A stretch of DNA of 63,613 nucleotides, filler included, from Candidatus Woesearchaeota archaeon (GTDB lineage Archaea; Nanobdellota; Nanobdellia; Woesearchaeales; BM511): NCBI GenBank assembly GCA_023266675.1. It is 4 parts of 4 records of this genome, joined end to end, with 100 filler letters (N's around TTAATTAATTAA, not from the genome) between each part and the next. Parts side by side here need not be neighbours in the genome. Positions count along the whole stretch, not along the records: positions 1 to 20,465 come from JAHFPP010000019.1; 3 more parts are not named here. One strand, given 5' to 3'. Both the position numbers and the translations under genes were made by a program. Below the pieces are notes generated by a model. It was not told where the DNA came from. It saw nothing but the letters and a program-made list of their open reading frames with translations, and made no database searches. Positions 3,964 to 16,086 of this stretch are shown piece after piece; position 1 is the stretch's first letter; every line of letters begins with the position of its first letter.

Positions 3964-5754
3964 ATGGGTGAACAGACAGTTAATTTAAATAACTTTTCAG
4001 GTACTGATAAGACTGTAAGTAAAGGAGTAAGTAAAGAGGATAATGATAAGAAAGAAGTAAAGCCGATTGCTGCCAAAAACGACACTGTTTCAAAGGCTCA
4101 TGAGATGGCTAAAGGGCAGCGTGATATTTCTGTTGCCGAGTTTTTTGAGAAAAACAGGCATTTACTTGGGTTTGATAATAAGAGAAAAGCTCTTTTGACA
4201 ACTATTAAAGAAGCTGTTGATAACTCACTAGACGCATGCGAAGAAGCAGGAATATTACCTGAAGTTCATGTTGACATTGTTGATATGGGTAATGACAGGT
4301 TCATGATTAAAGTTGAGGATAATGGCCCTGGAATCGTAAAAAAACAGATTCCAAGCATTTTCGCAAAGCTTCTTTACGGCTCAAAGTTTCATTCATTAAA
4401 GCAGTCCAGAGGACAGCAGGGTATTGGTATCTCTGCAGCAGCGCTTTATGGACAGCTTACAACAGGTAAACCAATTAGAATACTTTCTAAGATTGGACCG
4501 ATGGAGCCTGCGCATTACATGGAGCTTCATATTGACACTTCAAAAAATAAGCCAGAGATAATAAAGGAAGAAGTCCGCGACTGGTATAAGGAGCACGGAA
4601 CAAAGCTAGAGCTTGATATTGAAGGAATCTATCAGAAGGGCGGTCAGTCTGTTGATGAGTATATGAAGCAGACAGCAATTGCTAACCCTCACGTGACACT
4701 TGTTTACACTAATCCTAAAGCTGAGCAGATAATTTTTCCAAGAGCAACTGATGAGCTTCCAAAAGAGGCAAAGAACATCAAACCTCACCCTTATGGAATT
4801 GAGCTTGGTATATTGATAAGAATGCTTGCGCAGACTGAAACAAAGACTCTCCAGCAGTTTTTAACAAGTGAATTCTCAAGGGTTTCGCCTAACAACGCAA
4901 AGCAAATATGTGAAGAGGCATCAGTTCTTCCGAATACATCTCCTTCAAAGGTTTCAAGAGAAATGGCTGAAAAGCTTATTGAGGGAATAAAGAAAACAAA
5001 GATTATAGCGCCGTCAACGGACTGCATCTCACCAATTGGCGCAGAACAACTTAAGAAGGGTCTTAAAAAAGAGATTAACGCAGAATTTTATACTGCTGTA
5101 ACACGTTCACCTGAAATTTATCGAGGAAACCCGTTTGTCATTGAAGCAGGAATCGCTTATGGCGGAGACCAAAAAGCTGATGGTTCAATCAATATTTACA
5201 GATATGCTAACAGAGTGCCATTATTATATCAGCAGGGAGCATGCGCTATCACTGATGCTATTCAATCAACCAACTGGAAGCCTTACGGACTTCAGCAATC
5301 AGGAAATTCAACACCACAGGGCCCAATGACTATAACTGTTCATATGGCGTCTGTCTGGGTGCCTTTTACCAGTGAAGCAAAGGAAGCTCTAGCTCATTAT
5401 CCTGAGATAATCAAAGAGATTAAACTAGCTATACAAGAATGCGGCCGAGACCTTGCAAGCTATGTGATGAAGAAAAGAAGAGTAAAAGATGAGTTTAAAA
5501 AACGAAGTTATATTGAAAAATATATCCCTCACGTTGGACAAGCTTTGCAGGAGATGCTAAAGCTTAGTGATATTGAAGAAAAGAGAGTTGAAGGAAACCT
5601 AAAAGAGCTTCTTGAAAAAAGCAGAGGAAAACTTGATGATGTTGACTTTGACCCAGACAAGAATGAAGAGTATGATGAAAATTTTGCTAATATAGGAAAA
5701 GAAGAAACAGAAAAAGAAAGCAATGAAGAAGAGAAAGAAAAGAGTGATGAATAA
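3964..5754 (+). CDS. top6B: DNA topoisomerase VI subunit B
   Basis: GHKL motifs EAVDNSLDA, DNGPGI, SRGQQGIG; RYANRVPLL. Confidence 0.97.
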   Translation: MGEQTVNLNNFSGTDKTVSKGVSKEDNDKKEVKPIAAKNDTVSKAHEMAKGQRDISVAEFFEKNRHLLGFDNKRKALLTTIKEAVDNSLDACEEAGILPEVHVDIVDMGNDRFMIKVEDNGPGIVKKQIPSIFAKLLYGSKFHSLKQSRGQQGIGISAAALYGQLTTGKPIRILSKIGPMEPAHYMELHIDTSKNKPEIIKEEVRDWYKEHGTKLELDIEGIYQKGGQSVDEYMKQTAIANPHVTLVYTNPKAEQIIFPRATDELPKEAKNIKPHPYGIELGILIRMLAQTETKTLQQFLTSEFSRVSPNNAKQICEEASVLPNTSPSKVSREMAEKLIEGIKKTKIIAPSTDCISPIGAEQLKKGLKKEINAEFYTAVTRSPEIYRGNPFVIEAGIAYGGDQKADGSINIYRYANRVPLLYQQGACAITDAIQSTNWKPYGLQQSGNSTPQGPMTITVHMASVWVPFTSEAKEALAHYPEIIKEIKLAIQECGRDLASYVMKKRRVKDEFKKRSYIEKYIPHVGQALQEMLKLSDIEEKRVEGNLKELLEKSRGKLDDVDFDPDKNEEYDENFANIGKEETEKESNEEEKEKSDE

Positions 5755-5756
5755 AG

Positions 5757-6878
5757 ATGCCTAAAGAGAAAGATAAGAAAGAGAAAATTATGATTGAAAA
5801 TGAAGTTACTGATAAAATAAGAAGTAAAGCCAGAGGAGTATTTGATGACATTATCTCTTTAAAGCTTCCTAAGATGGAAATCCCTATTCGAAGCCTTCAA
5901 AACGTTGAGTATAATGAAGACAAGGGACACTTTGTCCAGATGGGTAAGATGAAGGAACGAAATTTAACTGCATCAACAATCAAAACATTTGCGCAGACAC
6001 TTAGAATGATGAATCTTTCACGGGAAATCGTTGGAAACGATGACATCGCTACAAAGAGAGAAGCGTATTACGTCTCCAAGAACTGGGGAGAAGCAAGGTT
6101 TAACGAGCAGCCTGAATCTGACGCTGTTATGGATGATATTGAAGCTATGATGGAAGTTAACCGAGAGCAGATTGGTTTCATCCCTGAAGAGAAGGGAGGC
6201 GAGATTGCCGGCGAATTAATCATTGTTGACAGAGACCCTGAAACTAAAAAAGAGTTAAAGATTGACTGCACAAAGATGGGTTCAGGCGCTTACGCTGCAC
6301 CTAGCTCATGCGAACACTTAAAGTTTGAAACAAAAGCAGATTTTATTTTAGCAATAGAAACAGCAGGTATGTTTCAGCGACTAGTAAAACACAGATACTG
6401 GAAAAAAGCAAACTGCATATTAATCTCAATGGGAGGAGTCCCAACACGAGCTTGCAGAAGATTTATAAGACGCCTTAGTGACGAGAAGAAACTTCCTGTT
6501 TACGCATTCACAGATGGAGACTTTTACGGATTCATGAATATTTATAGGACTCTAAAAGTTGGTTCAGGAAACGCTTCGCATATTAATGAATTTTTTTGTG
6601 TTCCAGAAGCAAAGTTTATTGGCGTAACCCCTCAGGACATAATTGATTATAATCTTCCTACGCATCCGCTTAAAGAAGTTGACATTAAAAGAGGAAAAGA
6701 CGCAATTAAAAACGACCCTTTCGTTCATGCGCATAAAGAATGGCAAAAAGCAATTGAACTGCAATTAAAACTTGGCAAAAGGGCAGAGCAGCAGGCGTTC
6801 GCAGCTTATGACTTGAACTATGTTATGGATAAATATTTGCCTGATAAACTCAAAGACAGAAAGACATGGCTTCCTTAA
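5757..6878 (+). CDS. top6A: DNA topoisomerase VI subunit A
   Basis: Spo11-like TKREAYY, AIETAGMF, TDGD toprim motifs; follows top6B. Confidence 0.97.
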   Translation: MPKEKDKKEKIMIENEVTDKIRSKARGVFDDIISLKLPKMEIPIRSLQNVEYNEDKGHFVQMGKMKERNLTASTIKTFAQTLRMMNLSREIVGNDDIATKREAYYVSKNWGEARFNEQPESDAVMDDIEAMMEVNREQIGFIPEEKGGEIAGELIIVDRDPETKKELKIDCTKMGSGAYAAPSSCEHLKFETKADFILAIETAGMFQRLVKHRYWKKANCILISMGGVPTRACRRFIRRLSDEKKLPVYAFTDGDFYGFMNIYRTLKVGSGNASHINEFFCVPEAKFIGVTPQDIIDYNLPTHPLKEVDIKRGKDAIKNDPFVHAHKEWQKAIELQLKLGKRAEQQAFAAYDLNYVMDKYLPDKLKDRKTWLP

Positions 6879-7678
6879 TCTAGCGGACTTTTTATATTCT
6901 CAAATCTTCTTGTGTCCATATTTATGTATGCTTTTCTTGTTGTCTCAATATTTGAATGTCCTAAAAGCGCTGATATATCATGTAGAGGAACGCCGTTATT
7001 TAGAAGGTGAGTTGCGTAGCTTGCGCGAAGCATATGAGGATAAACATTTTTTTCTACACCTGCCTTTTTTGCTGCATTTATGATTATTAATTCTGCCGTC
7101 CTTATTGATATGTGTTTTCCTTTGTTATAGGATGATTCAAAGAGATAATCAGATACCTGATAATCTGAATAATCATTCAAAAACCTGTCTGAGAGTTTGA
7201 CAAACCTGTCTTTTTTTCCTTTTCCCTGCCGAATTATTGCTCCATTTTCTTTTTCTAAAATATCCTCTTTTCTTATCCTGACTGCTTCGCCGACTCGCAG
7301 GCCTGCAGAGTATATTAACTCAATCAAAAGCCGATGCTTAGAATTGGTAGTAACTTCAATCATCTTTATTATTTCTTCTCGCTTAAGTGTTTTTACGATC
7401 TTTTTTGGAAGACGCGATCGTGAAAAGTCTTTCATGATGTTTCTTTTCATTATTTTCCTGTAATATTTTGTAAGCGCGCTTATCGCAAGCCTTATTGTTG
7501 TTGGCTTTGCAGAATTCATATTAAGATGCAGAAGATATTTTCTCACATCTTCATTTGTCACCTGATGTGGCTTTTTTTTAGCAAACTCCAAGAATTTTTT
7601 GTTGTGATAAACATATGCATCAATTGATTTTTTACTGTCATTTTCTAAAATCATCTCTTCTCTTAACACTTCAAACAT
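6875..7678 (-). CDS. Tyrosine recombinase, integron-integrase-like
   Basis: Likely ATG 7678 after GGTGA RBS; SAM-like N-domain; catalytic R (GLRVGE), K (GKGKK), HMLR, LGH, Y; ends IKSPLD; adjoins a cassette array. Confidence 0.9.
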   Translation of the reverse strand: MFEVLREEMILENDSKKSIDAYVYHNKKFLEFAKKKPHQVTNEDVRKYLLHLNMNSAKPTTIRLAISALTKYYRKIMKRNIMKDFSRSRLPKKIVKTLKREEIIKMIEVTTNSKHRLLIELIYSAGLRVGEAVRIRKEDILEKENGAIIRQGKGKKDRFVKLSDRFLNDYSDYQVSDYLFESSYNKGKHISIRTAELIIINAAKKAGVEKNVYPHMLRASYATHLLNNGVPLHDISALLGHSNIETTRKAYINMDTRRFENIKSPLD

Positions 7679-7703
7679 TTTGTTTTCACCTTTTTTAAAT
7701 AGC

Positions 7704-7818
7704 GCTGCGGCCGGGATTTTCACCCAGGCAACAAGTATTGCGAGTAATTTGAACCCAGATACCCTTGTCGGGCAGTGGCGTATCAAACCACCGCGCTACC
7801 AGGTTACGCTACCGCAGC
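7704..7818 (-). tRNA. tRNA-like element (GAU/Ile anticodon) with 47-nt variable region
   Basis: Acceptor GCTGCGG/CCGCAGC, D-arm GCGT-AACCTGGTA-GCGC, anticodon arm GTGGT-TTGATAC-GCCAC, T-arm CTGGG-TGAAAAT-CCCGG; atypical T-loop and insert. Confidence 0.6.
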
Positions 7819-7904
7819 ATAATAATGAAAATATAATTTTCAAACTTTACTTTTCGGCAAAGTATCGACATAAGTTTTATATATTTGATAACACTAATAT
7901 GTAT

Positions 7905-7942
7905 TGGCGTATCAAACCATTGCATTACCGGTTATGTTACCG
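7905..7942 (-). repeat. Degenerate copy of the 5' half of the tRNA-like element
   Basis: TGGCGTATCAAACCA identical at 7776-7790 and 7905-7919; similarity continues through the D-arm. Confidence 0.65.
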
Positions 7943-8194
7943 GCTTTTTCTTTTTTTAATTCTGAAGAATCCATTTATATATCTCACGCGAGCATGTCCA
8001 GTGTCCAGTGAAGCACTTTGTCGTCGATAACTAGCTGTCCAGTGGATTAACATTTCTTCTGTTCTTATTCATTTTAGCCTCAAATTTCAAAGACTTTTGC
8101 AAAAAGCGTTCATTGTTTGTTCTGATTGAGAATCATAAACCAACATGAGCCCTTTGCAAAGTATGAGTTATAGAAAAAATTTGAGGTTATAAAA

Positions 8195-8413
8195 ATGAAT
8201 AAAGAAAAGATAAAAGGATTAATATCAATGTATGACATGTTATTTGACGACTATTCAAGGCAGATGCTTTGGGTATGCAATAAAGAGTTCTCACAAAGAA
8301 AAAAACGCGCTATATCGGCAGATATCACAGTAAGAATGTTCTTTAAGCTTCTCTATGCACACACCTACCTTATGGAAGAGGCGGAAGAAACAAAAACCCC
8401 AAAAGAAGTTTAG
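8195..8413 (+). CDS. Hypothetical 72-aa protein
   Basis: GAGGT RBS and ATG; no recognisable family. Confidence 0.5.
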   Translation: MNKEKIKGLISMYDMLFDDYSRQMLWVCNKEFSQRKKRAISADITVRMFFKLLYAHTYLMEEAEETKTPKEV

Positions 8414-8485
8414 GGCAGTTTTTATTTATAAAACTTGCGCACGCAGTAATTCACGACAAACATCAAAAACCTTCGTCTAATAGAT

Positions 8486-8492
8486 GTTAAGT
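8486..8492 (+). other. First crossover core site GTTAAGT (attI-like or half attC)
   Basis: Preceded by CTTCG...GA-TGTT like the right arms of downstream sites, but no matching left arm seen. Confidence 0.55.
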
Positions 8493-8513
8493 TCAATATT
8501 ACTCGGGGGCGAT

Positions 8514-8762
8514 TTAGAATTCACCACGAAATGTTGGTCCATGACATTTGGGGCATTTTACATCTCTATGTATATCTGCAGCGATGTTACAAAAAGGACA
8601 ATATCTTCCATCATCTTTTGTTAAATCTCCCAAAGATTCTCTAAGTTCTGATAACTTTGCGCAATCTTCTAATATCTGTTCTTTTGTACGATTTTTATCT
8701 CCAACATTTATTACCTCAAACCATGTAACACCATATGCAACGATTTCGTTTTGATTATTCAT
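8514..8762 (-). CDS. Cassette 1 gene: small Zn-ribbon protein
   Basis: CPFC...CPKC; TTTATATA box upstream. Confidence 0.75.
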   Translation of the reverse strand: MNNQNEIVAYGVTWFEVINVGDKNRTKEQILEDCAKLSELRESLGDLTKDDGRYCPFCNIAADIHRDVKCPKCHGPTFRGEF

Positions 8763-8870
8763 GAATTATAGAATGATTAAATATTATATAAAAAGATTAC
8801 TATTCTGCCCCCTGCGTCATACTCTGCGTCGCCTTCGGCTCCTTGTCTCGCCCACTTTGTAGGCTCAAGA

Positions 8871-8990
8871 ATATAACACGAATTTAGCGGTTCACTTCGG
8901 CTCGCCACTTTGAAGCTTCGCCTCCGTTCTCCCAAATCCTTTAATGTTGCTTCGCAACTTAAATGACATCGCTAAATTCGTATGTTTCTC
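8871..8990 (+). repeat. attC-like site 1
   Basis: AACA-CGAATTTAGCG ... CGCTAAATTCG-TA-TGTT; CCCAAAT at 8931. Confidence 0.8.
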
Positions 8991-9268
8991 AAAATTTTTC
9001 GTCTCCTTTACAGCTTCGCAAAAATTATTTTATTCCGCCACCTTCGTTAAATCTACCGACGAGAAGACAAACTAAGAAATTCCTTGCACTTCTTATAACA
9101 ATGATTTAACGGCTCGCTACGCTCAACCTAAATTTTTTCTTATCAACACGGAAATCAGGGGTAAACTTAATAAAGTACTATTTTTGAACATAACCTTTAT
9201 ATACCAGTATTACATTCCCATAATAAGGGAATAGTGGAGTACTATACCTTATACAAATTATAAGCAAG

Positions 9269-10033
9269 GTGAATGATATGGATGGCTCTGTAATGCTCAA
9301 CAAACTGGATGAATTTATGTCTACACAGGTTAGAAAGGATGTGCTTAAATGTTATGTTATAAAAGATTCTTCCCAATCAGATGTAGTCACCTGCCTAGAT
9401 AAAATGAAACCCCAATATGGTTCAACTTCTACTGTAGATAGAATTACTTCCAGCTTAAATTATATAGGTATAATTGACAAAGAAGATATAAAAGAAAATA
9501 AGCAATATTACCGCGTTAATTGGCATATTTGGATACAAGAAACATTAAAATCACTTGGATTAAAAAATGTTTCTGAAGAAAAGGTTGCAGAGATTGAGAA
9601 ATTAGTTTCAGACAAAAAAATGATTGCCTTCTATTTTGCATTAACTTCTGAAGACGTATTAAAAACTATATGGCAGGAAAAACTGGATAAGGTTACCCTT
9701 AAAGAGCTTAAAAAAGAAGGGATACAACCGGAGATATTTTTGAATTATATGATTAAACAGGGACCTGGCATCAGTCACTTACCATTTTTCTTCATTTTAT
9801 CAGGGAATCCAATGGCAAAATTATGGGCTAAGGATATGAAAGATACCAAAAAAACTAAAGAAAAATCGTTTATTAAAGCTTTAAATGATGCTATTTTGAA
9901 AGATCCTGCAAAAGAAGTCCTTGAAAAATTCGATGACAAAGTCCTGAAAGAGATAATTGATAATATGAGAAAAATAGAGGAGGCAACAAAAAAACTATTT
10001 ATTGAACAGCTAAAAGAACAAATGAAATCATAA
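9269..10033 (+). CDS. Cassette 2 gene: hypothetical protein, possible N-terminal winged helix
   Basis: Long ORF; TVDRITSSLNYIGII...YYRVN resembles wHTH. Confidence 0.65.
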   Translation: MNDMDGSVMLNKLDEFMSTQVRKDVLKCYVIKDSSQSDVVTCLDKMKPQYGSTSTVDRITSSLNYIGIIDKEDIKENKQYYRVNWHIWIQETLKSLGLKNVSEEKVAEIEKLVSDKKMIAFYFALTSEDVLKTIWQEKLDKVTLKELKKEGIQPEIFLNYMIKQGPGISHLPFFFILSGNPMAKLWAKDMKDTKKTKEKSFIKALNDAILKDPAKEVLEKFDDKVLKEIIDNMRKIEEATKKLFIEQLKEQMKS

Positions 10034-10159
10034 TTAAGTACTTAGCACGGAACAATTCCCATAAGAAGAACTGCCCCGCGTAAGCGTGTTACAACTTTTC
10101 TTTTTATTAGGGAGTATTTAAACTTTTTTGTTCTGCGCTAGTAACTTTAAAAAAATAAG

Positions 10160-10747
10160 GTGAAAGCAATGGAAAAACAAAAAATACAAGAAGTATTTTC
10201 CGAGCAGATAAAGCCGCAACTCGGAAGGATACATAAAGAAGAAAAATATCTGAATATAGTGTGGCAGTTAGCTGAAAATGCTTCAGCTAATGATGGAAAA
10301 GGATTGAGAGAAGCGCAACTCACAGATGAAGTAAAACCTGCGTCACAAGCTTTGAATCGGCTTGCAGATAAAGGATTTGTTGAAATTACTCTTCCTGTTG
10401 GAAACGGAACCTTACTTATTGACCCTATAAACAATAAAAGAGAACTTTTCAAAAAGCAGGAGATGATTGAAAGATATTTTACGAAGTTTAGACTGCATCT
10501 CGATAGTAGTCAAGAAGTACAACAAATAGCTATGGAAGTGCTACATCTTAATTCCGAACGCGAATTAAACCGATGGGCAGAGTCACTTGAAGAGCAAGAT
10601 AACTTTGAGCGATATAACCTTGTCGTTTTCAAATTACTTGAAAGAGGAATTGAAGTCGGAAAGCAATTTTATGGTCCAATGCACTGGCGGAAGATGAGTA
10701 AATTTTACAACATTTCTGAAAAGACAAAAACAATTCTTGAGGGATGA
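10160..10747 (+). CDS. Cassette 2 gene: hypothetical protein, possible winged helix
   Basis: SQALNRLADKGFVEI. Confidence 0.65.
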   Translation: MKAMEKQKIQEVFSEQIKPQLGRIHKEEKYLNIVWQLAENASANDGKGLREAQLTDEVKPASQALNRLADKGFVEITLPVGNGTLLIDPINNKRELFKKQEMIERYFTKFRLHLDSSQEVQQIAMEVLHLNSERELNRWAESLEEQDNFERYNLVVFKLLERGIEVGKQFYGPMHWRKMSKFYNISEKTKTILEG

Positions 10748-10938
10748 ACATGACAAAATTTATCTCACGAAGAAATACAAATGTCGATTTTAGCTTTATT
10801 GCAAAAAATCCTGCAACAATCTTAATTGCAGGAGGCGTTCTTTTTTTGTTGATTGGCAAAGAATTATGGGGAGTATTACTCATTATATTAGGAGTAGTGC
10901 TTCACTTAATATGGTTAAAAGGAAAAGGGAGGATATAA
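10744..10938 (+). CDS. Cassette 2 gene: small 2-TM membrane protein
   Basis: Hydrophobic hairpin; ATGA overlap with upstream gene. Confidence 0.65.
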   Translation: MNMTKFISRRNTNVDFSFIAKNPATILIAGGVLFLLIGKELWGVLLIILGVVLHLIWLKGKGRI

Positions 10939-10939
10939 A

Positions 10940-11263
10940 ATGTTAAGCCTAATAGACACATGGATAAAAGCGACGGTTGAACATAGAATACTGAATATTG
11001 AGTATTTTAGCCACACAAAACAAGAGTATACTAAAAGAGATATTGAACCTGATTTTATAGGACCTTCCAGAGATGGAAGAAATAATGGAATATGGGCTAC
11101 ATTTTGTCATCTAAGAAACGAAGGCCCAAGATGTTTTCAACCACATTCTGTAAAGCATTTTTCCATTACTGAAAAAAGCTTTTCTCCTTCACCATTAGGA
11201 AGATGGAAAGAACTGTTGCCATTGTATGAACAAAAAGGACTTAAAGAAAAAGAGTTTGGGTGA
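10940..11263 (+). CDS. Cassette 2 gene: stand-alone WYL-domain protein
   Basis: LNIEY...TKRDIEP...ATFCHLRNEGPRCF matches the WYL pattern. Confidence 0.7.
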   Translation: MLSLIDTWIKATVEHRILNIEYFSHTKQEYTKRDIEPDFIGPSRDGRNNGIWATFCHLRNEGPRCFQPHSVKHFSITEKSFSPSPLGRWKELLPLYEQKGLKEKEFG

Positions 11264-11269
11264 ATTAAA

Positions 11270-11974
11270 ATGAAACTCAAACCCCTCTTTTTATGCTTCT
11301 TGTTAATGAGCACAGTATTGTTTAGTGCATGTACACAACAACAAATTACAGATACAACTGGACAAGTAATTGCATCCGGAAAGAAAATGCTTGATGACAC
11401 CAAGAATTTCGTGTCTAACGAAAGTGCAAGAGATGAAACAAAGATAAGTATGGCTAGTGGAATTGCCGAGTTTGCGACTAACTCCAATATAAAAAAAATA
11501 GAAAAAATTGAAACTTATCAACAATATATTGCAATGGCAGATAACTTAAATTTCGTAATTGATGTTATCAATAAAAAAACAGATGCGAACATAAAACAAA
11601 TATCCAAAGGAGTAGAGGACTGGAACAAATTTAATATGGAAGCTACGCGTTACGCACCTCTTTTTGAAAACTATAATAGTTTAGTGGACAGTTGTTACGC
11701 ATTTGATAAAAACAATGAAAAATCTGCTAACCTAGTATTAATAAAGTCAAGCAGCTTTACTGCAGAAGCGTTATTAATTTTAGGAACTGCATTTTATAAA
11801 ACTGCATTTTTTGCCACAGGGAAAATTGCTGAAGCCACAGGGATAACAAAACTGGCATCCGTATGTGATTCCTGTGTATCTTCAGCTATGAGTGCAGGCC
11901 ATTGGACTATACGTAATGGAATGATTGAAAAAACCACTGAATTTGCTGAAAATATTACATTAGCAAATACTTGA
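11270..11974 (+). CDS. Cassette 2 gene: lipoprotein
   Basis: Signal peptide with FSAC lipobox. Confidence 0.7.
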   Translation: MKLKPLFLCFLLMSTVLFSACTQQQITDTTGQVIASGKKMLDDTKNFVSNESARDETKISMASGIAEFATNSNIKKIEKIETYQQYIAMADNLNFVIDVINKKTDANIKQISKGVEDWNKFNMEATRYAPLFENYNSLVDSCYAFDKNNEKSANLVLIKSSSFTAEALLILGTAFYKTAFFATGKIAEATGITKLASVCDSCVSSAMSAGHWTIRNGMIEKTTEFAENITLANT

Positions 11975-12111
11975 ATTATTATAACTACCCCTGATTTCCT
12001 ATACAATGCTTCGCATGATATTTTTTATGGTTGATAAGAAAAAACTACGGCGGCGGAATAATTTTTGGAGACGAAAAACTCAAGCCCTCGCCACTTACGT
12101 AGCTTCGGGTC

Positions 12112-12250
12112 GAGAAACAAGCGTTAAGCGGTTCGTTTCGCTTGTCCACTTCGTAGCCTTCGCTTCACTCACCCAAATTTGATTTCAACTCTGAATTGCG
12201 GTGTACCTCAATTCGAGGAAATCAAACTTCGCTTAACGCTGATGTTAAAT
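12112..12250 (+). repeat. attC-like site 2
   Basis: AACA-AGCGTTAAGCG ... CGCTTAACGCT-GA-TGTT; CCCAAAT at 12172. Confidence 0.85.
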
Positions 12251-12266
12251 ACAATAAATGCATTTC

Positions 12267-12599
12267 CTATTTACGTGGCTTGGCAACATCAAAAGATCCC
12301 ATAATCTGCTCACGAGTTTTTTCCCATGTCCCATATTTTCTGAGAATTAGATGTGCACATTCTTTTGTAAATATAATATATGCATAAATATCTGATTTTA
12401 CAAATCCGTCTGGGGAATCACTCGAATCAATCACTAAATAATAGTCCATTAAATCGTTATATTTATGGAATTTACGACCAGAATCTTCAAGTGCAAAAAT
12501 TCGGTATAGCTCATTAGCAGTCTGGATTTCAGCTTTAAATTTAAACCAAATAGAATCTTCACTAGAACTAATTCCTTTAATCAATGGTTTTGATGTCAT
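12267..12599 (-). CDS. Cassette 3 gene: hypothetical protein
   Basis: 110-aa ORF filling the cassette. Confidence 0.7.
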   Translation of the reverse strand: MTSKPLIKGISSSEDSIWFKFKAEIQTANELYRIFALEDSGRKFHKYNDLMDYYLVIDSSDSPDGFVKSDIYAYIIFTKECAHLILRKYGTWEKTREQIMGSFDVAKPRK

Positions 12600-12719
12600 A
12601 ATAAGCCAAGTAAATGTTTTAATTTATGTATTTTACGGAAATGCATTTACTTCTCCGCTCCTCGACTGCGGTCTGTGGTGCTCGACCACGTTGCACTCTC
12701 AGCCTGCGGGCTTCGGGGT

Positions 12720-12830
12720 ATTTAACAGCGATTACACGGCTCACTCCTTGCAGTCGTTCGACCCAAATTCCTCGCCTATCTTATAACTGAAATTTTGTGC
12801 GAGGAACTTCGTGTAATCGCGATGTTATGT
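12720..12830 (+). repeat. attC-like site 3
   Basis: AACA-GCGATTACACG ... CGTGTAATCGC-GA-TGTT; CCCAAAT at 12762. Confidence 0.85.
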
Positions 12831-12899
12831 GCAATATTACTCAGGGACAAATAAAATAATTTAGTAAACCTTTTATAGAAACTAATCTAAGTATAGATA

Positions 12900-13322
12900 A
12901 TGGAGAAGACAATCATGGGAATATTTTCTGATGGATGGTGGATATTCTCTCAAGGATTAGATGGATTGATTTATTTTTGGTATGTAACATTAATATTAGT
13001 TCTCATGCTTTGTCTTTCAATTTATTTGATGTATAGAAAAAAAATAAAATTTCCTAAAAAGAGATTATACTTTTTGTTATATCCACTTTTTTTACCAGTT
13101 ATCATTTCTTTATTAGGTTCGATATTTTATGATACTCAATATGCTGGTATTGGGTATTTACCTGTTTTTTTATTTTTTTCAGATTTTATTTATTCAGCTA
13201 TTCTAATATACAAATTCAAGGATTATAGATTATTTCTATTTTCATTTTTTGGTTTACTTATTTGGTTAACTTTCTGGGTTCTTTTTGTTGCTGGAATGTC
13301 AATTGCTAATGATTGGATGTAA
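12900..13322 (+). CDS. Cassette 4 gene: 4-TM membrane protein
   Basis: Hydrophobic ORF ending GMSIANDWM. Confidence 0.75.
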   Translation: MEKTIMGIFSDGWWIFSQGLDGLIYFWYVTLILVLMLCLSIYLMYRKKIKFPKKRLYFLLYPLFLPVIISLLGSIFYDTQYAGIGYLPVFLFFSDFIYSAILIYKFKDYRLFLFSFFGLLIWLTFWVLFVAGMSIANDWM

Positions 13323-13376
13323 TTTTATTTGTCCCTTGCGTCATACTACCCTCGCTCACGTTGTAAGCTTCGGTGC

Positions 13377-13517
13377 ACATAACAGCGATTAACTGGTTCG
13401 GCACTTCGTGGTTCCCACTCTAAAGGTCTCCGCCCACGAAATGCCTCTCCCAAATTGCGAACACTATTTGATAACTAAACTTTTGGTTCGCAACTCCAGT
13501 TAATCGCGTTGTTATAC
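13377..13517 (+). repeat. attC-like site 4 (end of array)
   Basis: AACA-GCGATTAACTGG ... CCAGTTAATCGC-GT-TGTT; CCCAAAT at 13449. Confidence 0.85.
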
Positions 13518-14724: not shown

Positions 14725-16086
14725 ATGAAGAATATTTTGCTTGTTTACCCTCCTTTTTGCACGCCTGCAAGCCCGCCTTACTCGCTTGCTAACCTGTATG
14801 CATTCTTAAAAAAGAATCTTGATGATAAATACGCTGTTGATGTTTTGGATTTAAACGTATTATTCCATAAACTAAAATTCCCAAAATTCCAAGAGTATTA
14901 CAAAAGTATAAACAAAGATATGGATTTTGAAGAGTACAACTCTAAAACAAAAGAGTTTCAGGGATTAACTAAAGATGTTTATGCAAAAAATAACAAGCTC
15001 GTTGTTAATGGCGAAAATCCTGAACTTTTCAAAGAATTAGTTGATAAGATTAAAGAAATGAAGCCCGACATTGTTGCAATAAGCGTTGTCTACTCAAGCC
15101 AGGTTTTCTACACGTATTCAATTATTAAGGAACTAAAAAAGCACGGAATAAAAACAGTTATCGGCGGTCCGGCAGTGAATCCAAAAATAATTGATGCATG
15201 CGACGCACACTTGAAGAATGAGATGGAGCTTATAGGATTCATAAATGGCAAAAAACATGATGAATTAGATTTTGACTACTACCCATTGTATGATAAATTT
15301 AAGTTAGATGATTATTTTGTAGGCTCGCCAGTTATACCTATTAGAACCTGCACATCATGCTACTACAAGAAATGCGCATTTTGCTCGCATCACCAAAACA
15401 GTTTGTATTTTGAGTTCACGCTGGACAGGATAAAAGACAGCATCGTCAATTCAGGGAAAAAGCATATTTTTATTGTTGATGACATGATTCATAAGAAGAG
15501 GCTGCTTGAAATTGCCGACGCATTGAAGCCATTAAATGTTTTTTGGCAGTGCCAGCTAAAGCCGACAATAGACCTTGATTATAAAACTCTTAAGATATTG
15601 CATGATTCAGGTTTAAGAATAGTTGTCTGGGGTGTTGAATCCGCATGCGACAGGGTTCTTGGGTTGATAGAGAAAGGCACAAACAGTAAAGACATAGAGA
15701 AAGTACTTGAAGGCTCAAAGAAAGCAGGCATAAAAAACGGCGTTTACATAATGGCAGGATTCCCCGGCGAGACAAAAGAAGAGTTTATTGAGACAATTGA
15801 TTTTTTAAAAACAAACTCCGCAAACATAGACCTAGTATCAGTATCTATATTTGGACTTCAAAAAGGCACGCCGATTTACAATAATCCTGAGAAATTTGGA
15901 ATAAAGATTATCGAGCAGAAAAGAACAATTCTTGAGCCAAAGATAAGTTACACACTAAAATCCGGGCTAACGCAGGAAGAAGCCTCTGGCATGAAAAAGA
16001 AGTACAAAAAAACTTTGGAAAAATTAAACAAGTATCCAAAAGAAATGAATTTCTTTCGTGAGCATATGCTTTCACTGGAAGAATAA
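14725..16086 (+). CDS. B12-binding radical SAM protein
   Basis: CYYKKCAFC, GVES, GFPGET; N-terminal cobalamin-binding-like domain. Confidence 0.85.
   Translation: MKNILLVYPPFCTPASPPYSLANLYAFLKKNLDDKYAVDVLDLNVLFHKLKFPKFQEYYKSINKDMDFEEYNSKTKEFQGLTKDVYAKNNKLVVNGENPELFKELVDKIKEMKPDIVAISVVYSSQVFYTYSIIKELKKHGIKTVIGGPAVNPKIIDACDAHLKNEMELIGFINGKKHDELDFDYYPLYDKFKLDDYFVGSPVIPIRTCTSCYYKKCAFCSHHQNSLYFEFTLDRIKDSIVNSGKKHIFIVDDMIHKKRLLEIADALKPLNVFWQCQLKPTIDLDYKTLKILHDSGLRIVVWGVESACDRVLGLIEKGTNSKDIEKVLEGSKKAGIKNGVYIMAGFPGETKEEFIETIDFLKTNSANIDLVSVSIFGLQKGTPIYNNPEKFGIKIIEQKRTILEPKISYTLKSGLTQEEASGMKKKYKKTLEKLNKYPKEMNFFREHMLSLEE

Follow-up and report, generated by a model that had tools for sequence, protein, structure and literature searches.

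The window analysed here, a stretch of 63,613 nucleotides of DNA from the genome of a Candidatus Woesearchaeota archaeon (GCA_023266675.1), contains a tyrosine recombinase gene that diverges from an array of gene cassettes bounded by attC-like recombination sites (6875-13517). We consider it likely that this is a chromosomal integron-like cassette platform run by a distinct clade of XerA-derived recombinases, which lack the additional domain of the integron integrases (IntI). The observations on which this reading is built are the anatomy of the sites, the covariation of their stems, the signature at the cassette boundaries, the repeated linkage of sites to a recombinase gene and the separate clade formed by these recombinases. 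What is new is a different recombinase lineage together with a modified site architecture on a platform of the integron type. Window positions 1-20465 correspond to a single contig of a 1.22-Mb genome (83 contigs, 95.9% complete), the remainder being other contigs with runs of N between them. Comparisons were made with an order sample of 41 genomes, comprising the window's own (G000) and 40 relatives, one per genus and from 38 families, and with a class sample of 151 genomes.

The recombinase gene (6875-7681, minus strand) is intact, points away from the attI-like site and the array, and encodes a XerA-like tyrosine recombinase of 268 amino acids, the putative cassette integrase, which is composed of an N-terminal SAM-like domain and a phage-integrase catalytic domain (PF00589, 112 bits). 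In the clade alignment, there is no variation in the columns of the catalytic residues R, K, H, R, H and Y. The best family match is archaeal XerA, with a score for NF040815 (186.2 bits) that lies below the equivalog cut-off of 220, and the protein is colinear over its full length with the structure of Pyrococcus abyssi XerA (4a8e, 119 bits). The integron-integrase model TIGR02249, on the other hand, reached 152.7 bits against a cut-off of 265 and aligned in two pieces, skipping the additional domain. Alignment to the structure of Vibrio IntI4 (2a3v, 112.7 bits) is similarly broken in two, query residues 166-182 spanning chain residues 172-233, which leaves approximately 45 residues of the chain without a counterpart in the recombinase. 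A preliminary description of this DNA, made from the sequence alone, had remarked on the short stretch between the residues KDRFV and KHIS and taken the IntI insertion to be absent, which these alignments bear out, and its interpretation that a non-IntI recombinase drives an integron-like platform is supported by the TIGR02249 score. In this region, the columns specific to IntI1 (taken from a plasmid record) are empty in 39/39 archaeal sequences aligned, and no canonical IntI was found in the order sample, where 0/41 genomes have a TIGR02249 match over the cut-off and every match skips model positions ~181-237. The only other tyrosine recombinase of the window genome (contig C73 of G000, positions 1216-2463 of locus L002, minus strand) is a protein of 415 amino acids with a cysteine-rich C-terminal tail, which has no linked site of the attC-like family.

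The array extends from 8486 to 13517 and consists of four cassettes delimited by GTT triplets at 8486, 8984, 12244, 12824 and 13511, coordinates that had already been given in the preliminary description, together with the orientation of the intact recombinase gene, and that all hold. Each cassette ends in an attC-like site, all four of which lie on the plus strand: site 1 (8871-8990), site 2 (12112-12250), site 3 (12720-12830) and site 4 at the array end (13377-13517). The GTT box of the last one, GTTATAC, has no downstream partner. On the plus strand, a site reads nnnTAAC, A, an arm of 11-12 nt, a variable interior, the complementary arm, two unpaired bases and T-GTTAnnn, and it folds as single-stranded DNA into an AACA/TGTT stem, a 2-nt bulge and a stem of 11-13 bp. 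All four sites fold better than shuffles on both strands, with z-scores between -2.5 and -5.4 (for top and bottom strand, respectively, -2.85 and -2.54 in site 1, -3.76 and -4.03 in site 2, -2.95 and -4.06 in site 3, and -5.20 and -5.37 in site 4). Sites of this kind measure 81-180 bp, with a median of 104 bp.

A loose hairpin scan proved unspecific in AT-rich DNA and covariance models were used instead, one built from the window's four sites (R1) and a second one built from all sites (R2), with which the class sample was searched. In the 1.22-Mb window genome, R1 identified exactly the four sites (119.1, 115.7, 90.1 and 114.5 bits for sites 1 to 4) and none else. Matches were found in 15 of the 40 relatives from the same order (16/41 genomes counting the window's own), and in the flanks that were fetched R1 gave 46 matches, 42 of which are outside the window. 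When these 46 sites were aligned, 94.6% of the stem cells were found to pair and 116 cells had changed on both sides, compared with 33 in shuffles and 9-16 when partners were slid by 1-3 columns. The alignment was fitted to the model and is thus biased towards structure, but compensatory changes are nevertheless evident in the raw sequences. R2 detected the site family in 29/151 genomes of the class sample, the window's own among them, and gave no match in 771 kb around 79 other Xer/IntI-type genes, a control set obtained from a contig scan with the clade alignment, whose pattern is generic, so that most of these genes are bacterial Xer/IntI genes. A scan of the window with Rfam, which does not include the attC covariance model of IntegronFinder, returned a tRNA only. 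The sites also share a strand asymmetry: all 41 sites examined have a pyrimidine-rich top-strand interior, and in 38/41 folding predictions favour the bottom strand.

At the cassette boundaries, it is the AAC box of the following site, and not the one within the same site, that each GTT tail can pair with. GTTTCTC at 8984 is complementary to GAGAAAC in the next site (12112-12118), GTTAAATAC at 12244 to GTATTTAAC in the next site (12718-12726) and GTTATGTGCA at 12824 to TGCACATAAC in the next site (13374-13383), and GTTAAGTTC at 8486 is an imperfect complement of GAATATAAC at 8869-8877 (7/9). The preliminary description had held that the first bases of each unit complement the AAC core at the unit's own 3' end and not the neighbouring site, and this extends well beyond the window. 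Of 24 adjacent site pairs in ten arrays (the window and nine related loci), 19 show exact reverse complementarity between the four bases that follow GTT and the four that precede the next AAC, while within single sites the two boxes match 4/4 in 2 of 34. When the boxes were re-paired at random, the mean was 2.26/24 and the maximum 8 in 2000 shuffles. Pairing of a GTT tail with the next AAC box is the mark of successive insertion of circular cassettes with a paired AAC/GTT stem and crossover at GTT.

The content of the four cassettes, which are all delimited on the plus strand, is in keeping with the orphan genes of integron cassettes. Cassette 1 (8487-8984) carries attC1 and a single open reading frame (ORF) of 82 amino acids on the minus strand (8514-8762) with a weak zinc-ribbon match; cassette 2 (8985-12244) carries attC2 and five plus-strand ORFs of 254, 195, 64, 107 and 234 amino acids, all of them orphans, the 107-amino acid one having a weak WYL match. 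In cassette 3 (12245-12824), attC3 is accompanied by one minus-strand ORF of 110 amino acids (12267-12599), and in cassette 4 (12825-13511) attC4 is accompanied by one ORF of 140 amino acids (12900-13322), whose product is perhaps a membrane protein since it is hydrophobic by eye. Searches of the cassette proteins with PADLOC, Pfam and NCBIfam gave weak matches only, such as the WYL fragment. Nine ORFs, i.e. the eight in the cassettes and one of 72 amino acids upstream of the array, had no match in any of the related loci fetched. Relatives carry different cassettes, and an invariant gene order among them, which the preliminary description had set against its own interpretation, was not seen.

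At the recombinase end, the array starts with an attI-like insertion site (8466-8497, plus strand) that adjoins and diverges from the recombinase gene and was recognized from the consensus of nine loci. In the window, it consists of an L box TCTAAT, 4 nt, GTT (8486), AAGT and TCAAT, with no partner AAC arm. The general layout is a left arm ending in TTAA (an L box of TTAAT type), six bp and a right arm with consensus TTA..T.CAAT. The full attI consensus, taaaacT.cGttTAAtag.tGTTa..t.cAAT, is colinear with that of the GTT-side arm of attC, aaAaCTtC.cTtAa.cc.gATGTTA..t.cAAT, minus two bulged bases, so that attI corresponds to the attC stem in duplex form. The lone GTT half-site at the recombinase end and the complete site at the far end give the array its polarity and place the crossover on the GTT side, as in integrons. 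In 7/9 loci, GTT and the four bases that follow it are the exact reverse complement of the first attC AAC box (7/7), with 6/7 in one more. The distance between attI and the start of the recombinase gene is ~130-200 bp in 7/9 loci, 969 bp in G002 and 804 bp in the window, where a tRNA gene, a tRNA-like fragment and the 72-amino acid ORF intervene and account for the difference. An alternative attI at 8185 (GTTATAA, 6/7) was rejected because it is without the L box and CAAT tail present at 8486. In one relative (locus L087, contig C98 of G008), the attI ~131 nt upstream of the recombinase start is a complete mini-hairpin: 4 nt separate its AAC box from a 6-nt arm, a loop of 3 nt joins this arm to the complementary one, and the GTT box follows. 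In most loci there is only an inverted L-box copy. A conserved A/T-rich element that looks like an archaeal TATA box and precedes CGCTTTTC is found in three loci (L066, L067 and L087) between the recombinase start and attI, ~50-80 nt ahead of the attI GTT. It could drive either the cassettes or the recombinase gene.

Homologues of the recombinase were found in 35/41 genomes of the order sample. In 11 of these 41 genomes, each from a different genus (G000, G002, G005, G008, G009, G011, G018, G020, G021, G031 and G032), sites lie on the same contig as a recombinase gene, upstream of it and divergent from it. In the class sample, the same geometry was found in 11 of 28 genomes with sites, the window's own excluded (G031, G071, G099, G102, G122, G126, G141, G143, G148, G159 and G167, cross-matched by hand). 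The search for co-occurrence with a covariance model made from the four sites, which the preliminary description had suggested, thus finds sites directly upstream of homologous recombinases in many relatives. Conversely, the 10-13 kb of upstream sequence fetched for 10 unlinked paralogues yielded no site. In genomes that have both types of recombinase (G008, G009, G018, G020, G021 and G032), the array is found beside the divergent paralogue only. In three relatives, the contig ends 20-70 bp after an attI-like motif, which would fit population-level variation in the first cassette.

Phylogeny separates the same two groups. Full-length copies were labelled before tree building as linked (site upstream on the same contig and divergent; n=12, one of them weak), unlinked (3-13 kb upstream without a site; n=12) or end (contig stopping at most 2 kb upstream of the gene, mostly within 700 bp; n=15). 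In a maximum-likelihood tree, 12/12 linked and 10 end copies are on one side of a branch with an ultrafast bootstrap (UFBoot) of 95 and an SH-like approximate likelihood ratio test (SH-aLRT) value of 94, while 12/12 unlinked copies and a tight group of five end copies are on the other. The window recombinase is on the side opposite to the unlinked XerA genes of its order, i.e. outside their bona fide XerA clade, and the grouping with XerA that the preliminary description had named among the signs against its interpretation was not seen. The XerA cut-off, in the same way, is passed by 11/12 of the unlinked copies, whose scores range over 216-281 bits, and by 2/13 scored linked-side enzymes (11 with sites and 2 whose contig ends upstream). 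The group of five end copies (L084, L085, L023, L080 and L098, from G029, G030, G024, G010 and G039, respectively) is XerA-like, has support of 100/100 and may be a further cassette-linked lineage; in G029, L084 shows an attI-like motif 222 nt upstream of the gene and 29 nt from the contig end.

Several observations weigh against this interpretation. The attI junction of the window itself is imperfect (5/7), and in two of its four cassettes the ORF lies on the other strand, which is not the case in most integron cassettes. Five of the 24 adjacent pairs break the boundary rule, although missed sites may lie inside them since the distance exceeds 0.8 kb in all five and 1.1 kb in four. In 17 of the 28 site-bearing class genomes, sites and recombinase are on separate contigs, often at contig ends. 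When IntI1 is added as a single long-branched outgroup, the linked sequences become a grade and the root is poorly supported, and in view of this instability we make no claim as to clade versus grade or to the ancestral form. Finally, window DNA is present in groundwater metagenome runs, two public runs of one study holding it (one of them probably the source sample) and a third run of the same sample having next to none, and the assembled contigs by which the two runs are represented are colinear with the window, with no joint that skips a cassette, although contigs cannot show rare circles. A joint 7731->7925 in one short contig and an extra depth at 7906-8339 in these data were considered as possible cassette activity and rejected, because the depth, and perhaps the joint as well, can be put down to a short dispersed repeat of this genome.

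How such a platform might work can be outlined from the sites. After excision, a cassette would be circular and its attC would fold in single-stranded form, with the AAC box pairing with the GTT box and the L-box halves with each other. The folded stem would copy the attI core, i.e. arm, 6 bp and arm in the 11-6-11 layout of Xer/dif, plus 2 unpaired spacer bases. The recombinase would exchange one strand at G^TT (AA^C on the bottom strand), between a folded attC and attI or between two attC, and replication would complete the exchange, as in integrons and in the Xer-dependent phage CTX. The boundary rule makes sense only if AAC and GTT pair in the excised cassette, which points to a folded single-stranded or extruded substrate, and spacers differ between sites, as seen from the covariation of the three L-proximal base pairs, which disfavours a full two-strand exchange between duplexes. 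The folding advantage of the bottom strand, the pyrimidine skew and the position of the crossover together suggest that the bottom strand is likely to be the reactive one. Catalysis by the neighbouring enzyme, the single-stranded substrate, bottom-strand reactivity and replication-dependent resolution are all parts of a scheme that is derived from sequence and should be viewed as such.

The alternative that survives best is that the recombinase is an ordinary XerA dimer resolvase, that attI is dif, or doubles as dif, and that the cassettes are Xer-exploiting elements stacked there, which we regard as unlikely. Since there is no second Xer-type gene in the window genome, its enzyme could simply be the cell's dimer resolvase, which is a further argument against a dedicated integrase, and about 15/41 relatives likewise show a linked-clade enzyme only, including G031 whose genome is 100% complete in 3 contigs. 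Moreover, attI and the attC stems share the arm, 6 bp and arm layout of dif, and P. abyssi XerA was reported to bind unrelated stem-loop sites weakly (PMC8371274). Against this stand the six genomes with both types of enzyme, in which the array is next to the divergent paralogue and never next to the other one, and the scores of the linked-side enzymes, 11/13 of which do not reach the XerA equivalog cut-off. The two readings are compatible, however, since one enzyme could act both as dimer resolvase and as cassette integrase.

It is conceivable, but rather improbable, that the cassettes move because neighbouring sites recombine as duplexes at their GTT-side cores, with no folded strand involved. 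The dif-flanked modules found on some bacterial plasmids offer an analogue for such a process. Each site, as a duplex, holds two inverted dif-like cores and attI is a plain duplex core, which would suit this scenario. However, the variation of spacers between sites disfavours complete two-strand exchange, and duplex recombination gives no reason why the AAC box of a cassette should complement the preceding GTT box, as it does in 19/24 pairs, and leaves the strand skew unexplained. As for the notion that the array is an attC cluster without its own integrase, served in trans by a canonical IntI and located next to a recombinase by chance, which could draw on the finding of Ghaly et al. that the majority of archaeal arrays have no detectable IntI (PMC9668308), it is strongly disfavoured by the recurrence of the same geometry in 21 genomes, the fixed distance between the attI junction and the gene, the absence of a canonical IntI in all 41 genomes and the position of the site bulge, which is on the arm opposite to the one read by canonical IntI.

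An integron-like platform with a XerA-derived enzyme remains, to our mind, the best reading, and a comparison with known systems helps to define it. With integrons, it shares a recombinase gene that diverges from attI and the cassette array; attC sites that are imperfect palindromes with AAC/GTT boxes, a TTAAT-type L box and the spacing TTAAT-N6-GTT on the GTT-side arm; a crossover at GTT, with the first bases of a cassette complementing its own AAC box; orphan cassette genes; and a purine-rich bottom strand, the skew being that of canonical attC (PMC5027507). It differs in that the enzyme is without the additional domain (the I2 helix) and fails the integron-integrase models, that the sites are long, that cassettes are found in both orientations and that one of them carries five genes. 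Two further differences concern the architecture of the sites. In canonical attC, as described by Nivina et al., the spacer between R and L boxes is unpaired and the extrahelical bases, which face the AAC triplet of the bottom strand, the one that is recombined, are located on the top-strand AAC arm (PMC5027507). The extrahelical-base rule also holds for the attCaadA7 control of Ghaly et al. and for the nine archaeal attCs that they tested (Data S9 and S10 of PMC9668308), and these nine have the canonical unpaired spacer (Data S9). In the present sites, by contrast, the central spacer is base-paired and the sole unpaired bases of the stem are the 2-nt bulge on the top-strand GTT arm, which corresponds to the AAC arm of the bottom strand. 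The divergent site type put forward in the preliminary description is therefore upheld as regards the paired spacer and the bulge on the opposite arm, which add to it, but has to be qualified as regards the boxes, the L box and the GTT-arm spacing, which are those of canonical attC. These common elements may point to the two types of site being related rather than convergent.

Archaeal XerA/dif is the best structural and family match of the recombinase (4a8e and 5hxy), with colinearity over the whole length, and the site core corresponds to the arrangement given for dif in a review of archaeal recombinases, i.e. inverted arms of 11 nt around a 6-nt spacer with cleavage at the spacer ends (PMC8371274). 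In contrast to XerA, the present enzyme belongs to a clade separate from the unlinked XerA of its order, scores below the equivalog cut-off and is accompanied by mobile cassettes and numerous hairpin sites instead of one dif site. A third parallel is phage CTX and other elements that exploit XerCD, in which a Xer enzyme without an I2-like domain handles a hairpin that mimics duplex DNA (Escudero et al. 2016; PMC4792948). The Xer-type enzyme lacking an I2-like domain, the folded single strand with a stem mimicking the duplex core and the exchange of one strand, the junction being resolved by replication, would all be common to CTX (PMC4792948) and the platform as proposed here. However, the recombinase of the platform is a dedicated paralogue adjoining the insertion site, and the elements are promoter-poor gene cassettes in arrays and not phages.

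Against attC arrays in 75 archaeal genomes, Ghaly et al. (2022) counted only six IntIs, three of them incomplete, and they attributed the excess of integrase-less arrays to fragmented assemblies (PMC9668308); the paper counts 539 sites, and its supplements give nine attC sequences. Smyshlyaev et al. (2021) described the insertion as "not fully conserved" in an integron-like subgroup, without connecting such proteins with cassettes (PMC8138268). A full-text literature search in which few subscription journals were covered returned no paper tying a XerA-type enzyme to attC-like arrays. We would go one step further and propose, with the chances about evenly balanced, that many archaeal 'integrase-less' arrays have a resident enzyme after all, which would belong to a second cassette-integrase lineage that arose from archaeal XerA, has no I2-like domain and recombines folded single-stranded sites with a stem that is a bulged version of a dif-type core. 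Integron integrases are both defined and searched for by their additional domain, which reads the extrahelical bases of attC. Were the proposal true, the apparent want of an integrase in most archaeal cassette arrays would be explained, current integron-finding tools would undercount gene-cassette platforms in ultra-small archaea, and the I2 helix would turn out to be dispensable for hairpin recombination of the integron type, cassette capture being able to run on a simpler Xer-type enzyme. The platforms of DPANN archaea would then represent either an independent invention of the integron or a living intermediate between Xer and integrons, in line with the speculation by Escudero et al. (2016) that a CTX-like system preceded integrons (PMC4792948). 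They would offer a concrete system in which to test the origin of integrons from Xer/dif recombination, and a new pair of structure-specific recombinase and site for genetic engineering.

The surroundings of the platform are those of an archaeal chromosome. Topoisomerase VI subunits B and A are encoded at 3964-6878, which identifies the host as an archaeon, subunit A having been recognized by an NCBIfam model (E 2.6e-151) and subunit B by eye from its translation, and the nearest named relatives of the recombinase are in Candidatus Pacearchaeota and Woesearchaeota assemblies. Subunit A adjoins the recombinase in none of the related loci fetched, and the neighbourhood of the platform is otherwise unconserved among them. 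Just past the distal end of the array, a radical-SAM-like gene is found both in the window (14725-16086) and in locus L077 (8250-9473; contig C37 of G027), with 34% identity, which hints that the far flank of the platform is conserved across families.

Between the recombinase start and attI lies a tRNA gene (7703-7818, minus strand), the sole one found in the window, which was identified by the Rfam scan (RF00005, 44.9 bits) and not by ARAGORN. It contains an intron of ~45 nt, ends 22 nt from the start codon of the recombinase gene and has an anticodon that by eye resembles GAU; a degenerate copy of its 5' half is found at 7905-7945 (minus strand), ~85 nt beyond it. No tRNA was found at the corresponding place in 7 related loci scanned, which makes it peculiar to the window genome. 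In one relative (contig C2 of G009), tRNA genes are located inside or beside the cassette array (L064, 9372-9454, 5684-5758 and 2228-2353), one of them adjoining an attC-like site. The dispersed repeat mentioned above is found at 7954-8003, and its copies of 30-59 nt are on contigs C13, C31 (two), C66, C34 and C1 of the genome. It holds a doubled GTCCAGTG motif, which is also found upstream of the G018 recombinase gene (L070). The best plasmid match to the recombinase (36.5% identity) is encoded by a plasmid of Clostridium estertheticum (L104, 2986-3843), where it is annotated as 'site-specific tyrosine recombinase/integron integrase' and lies directly upstream of an IS91-family transposase, so that short Xer-like enzymes of that NCBI family are also found on bacterial mobile DNA.

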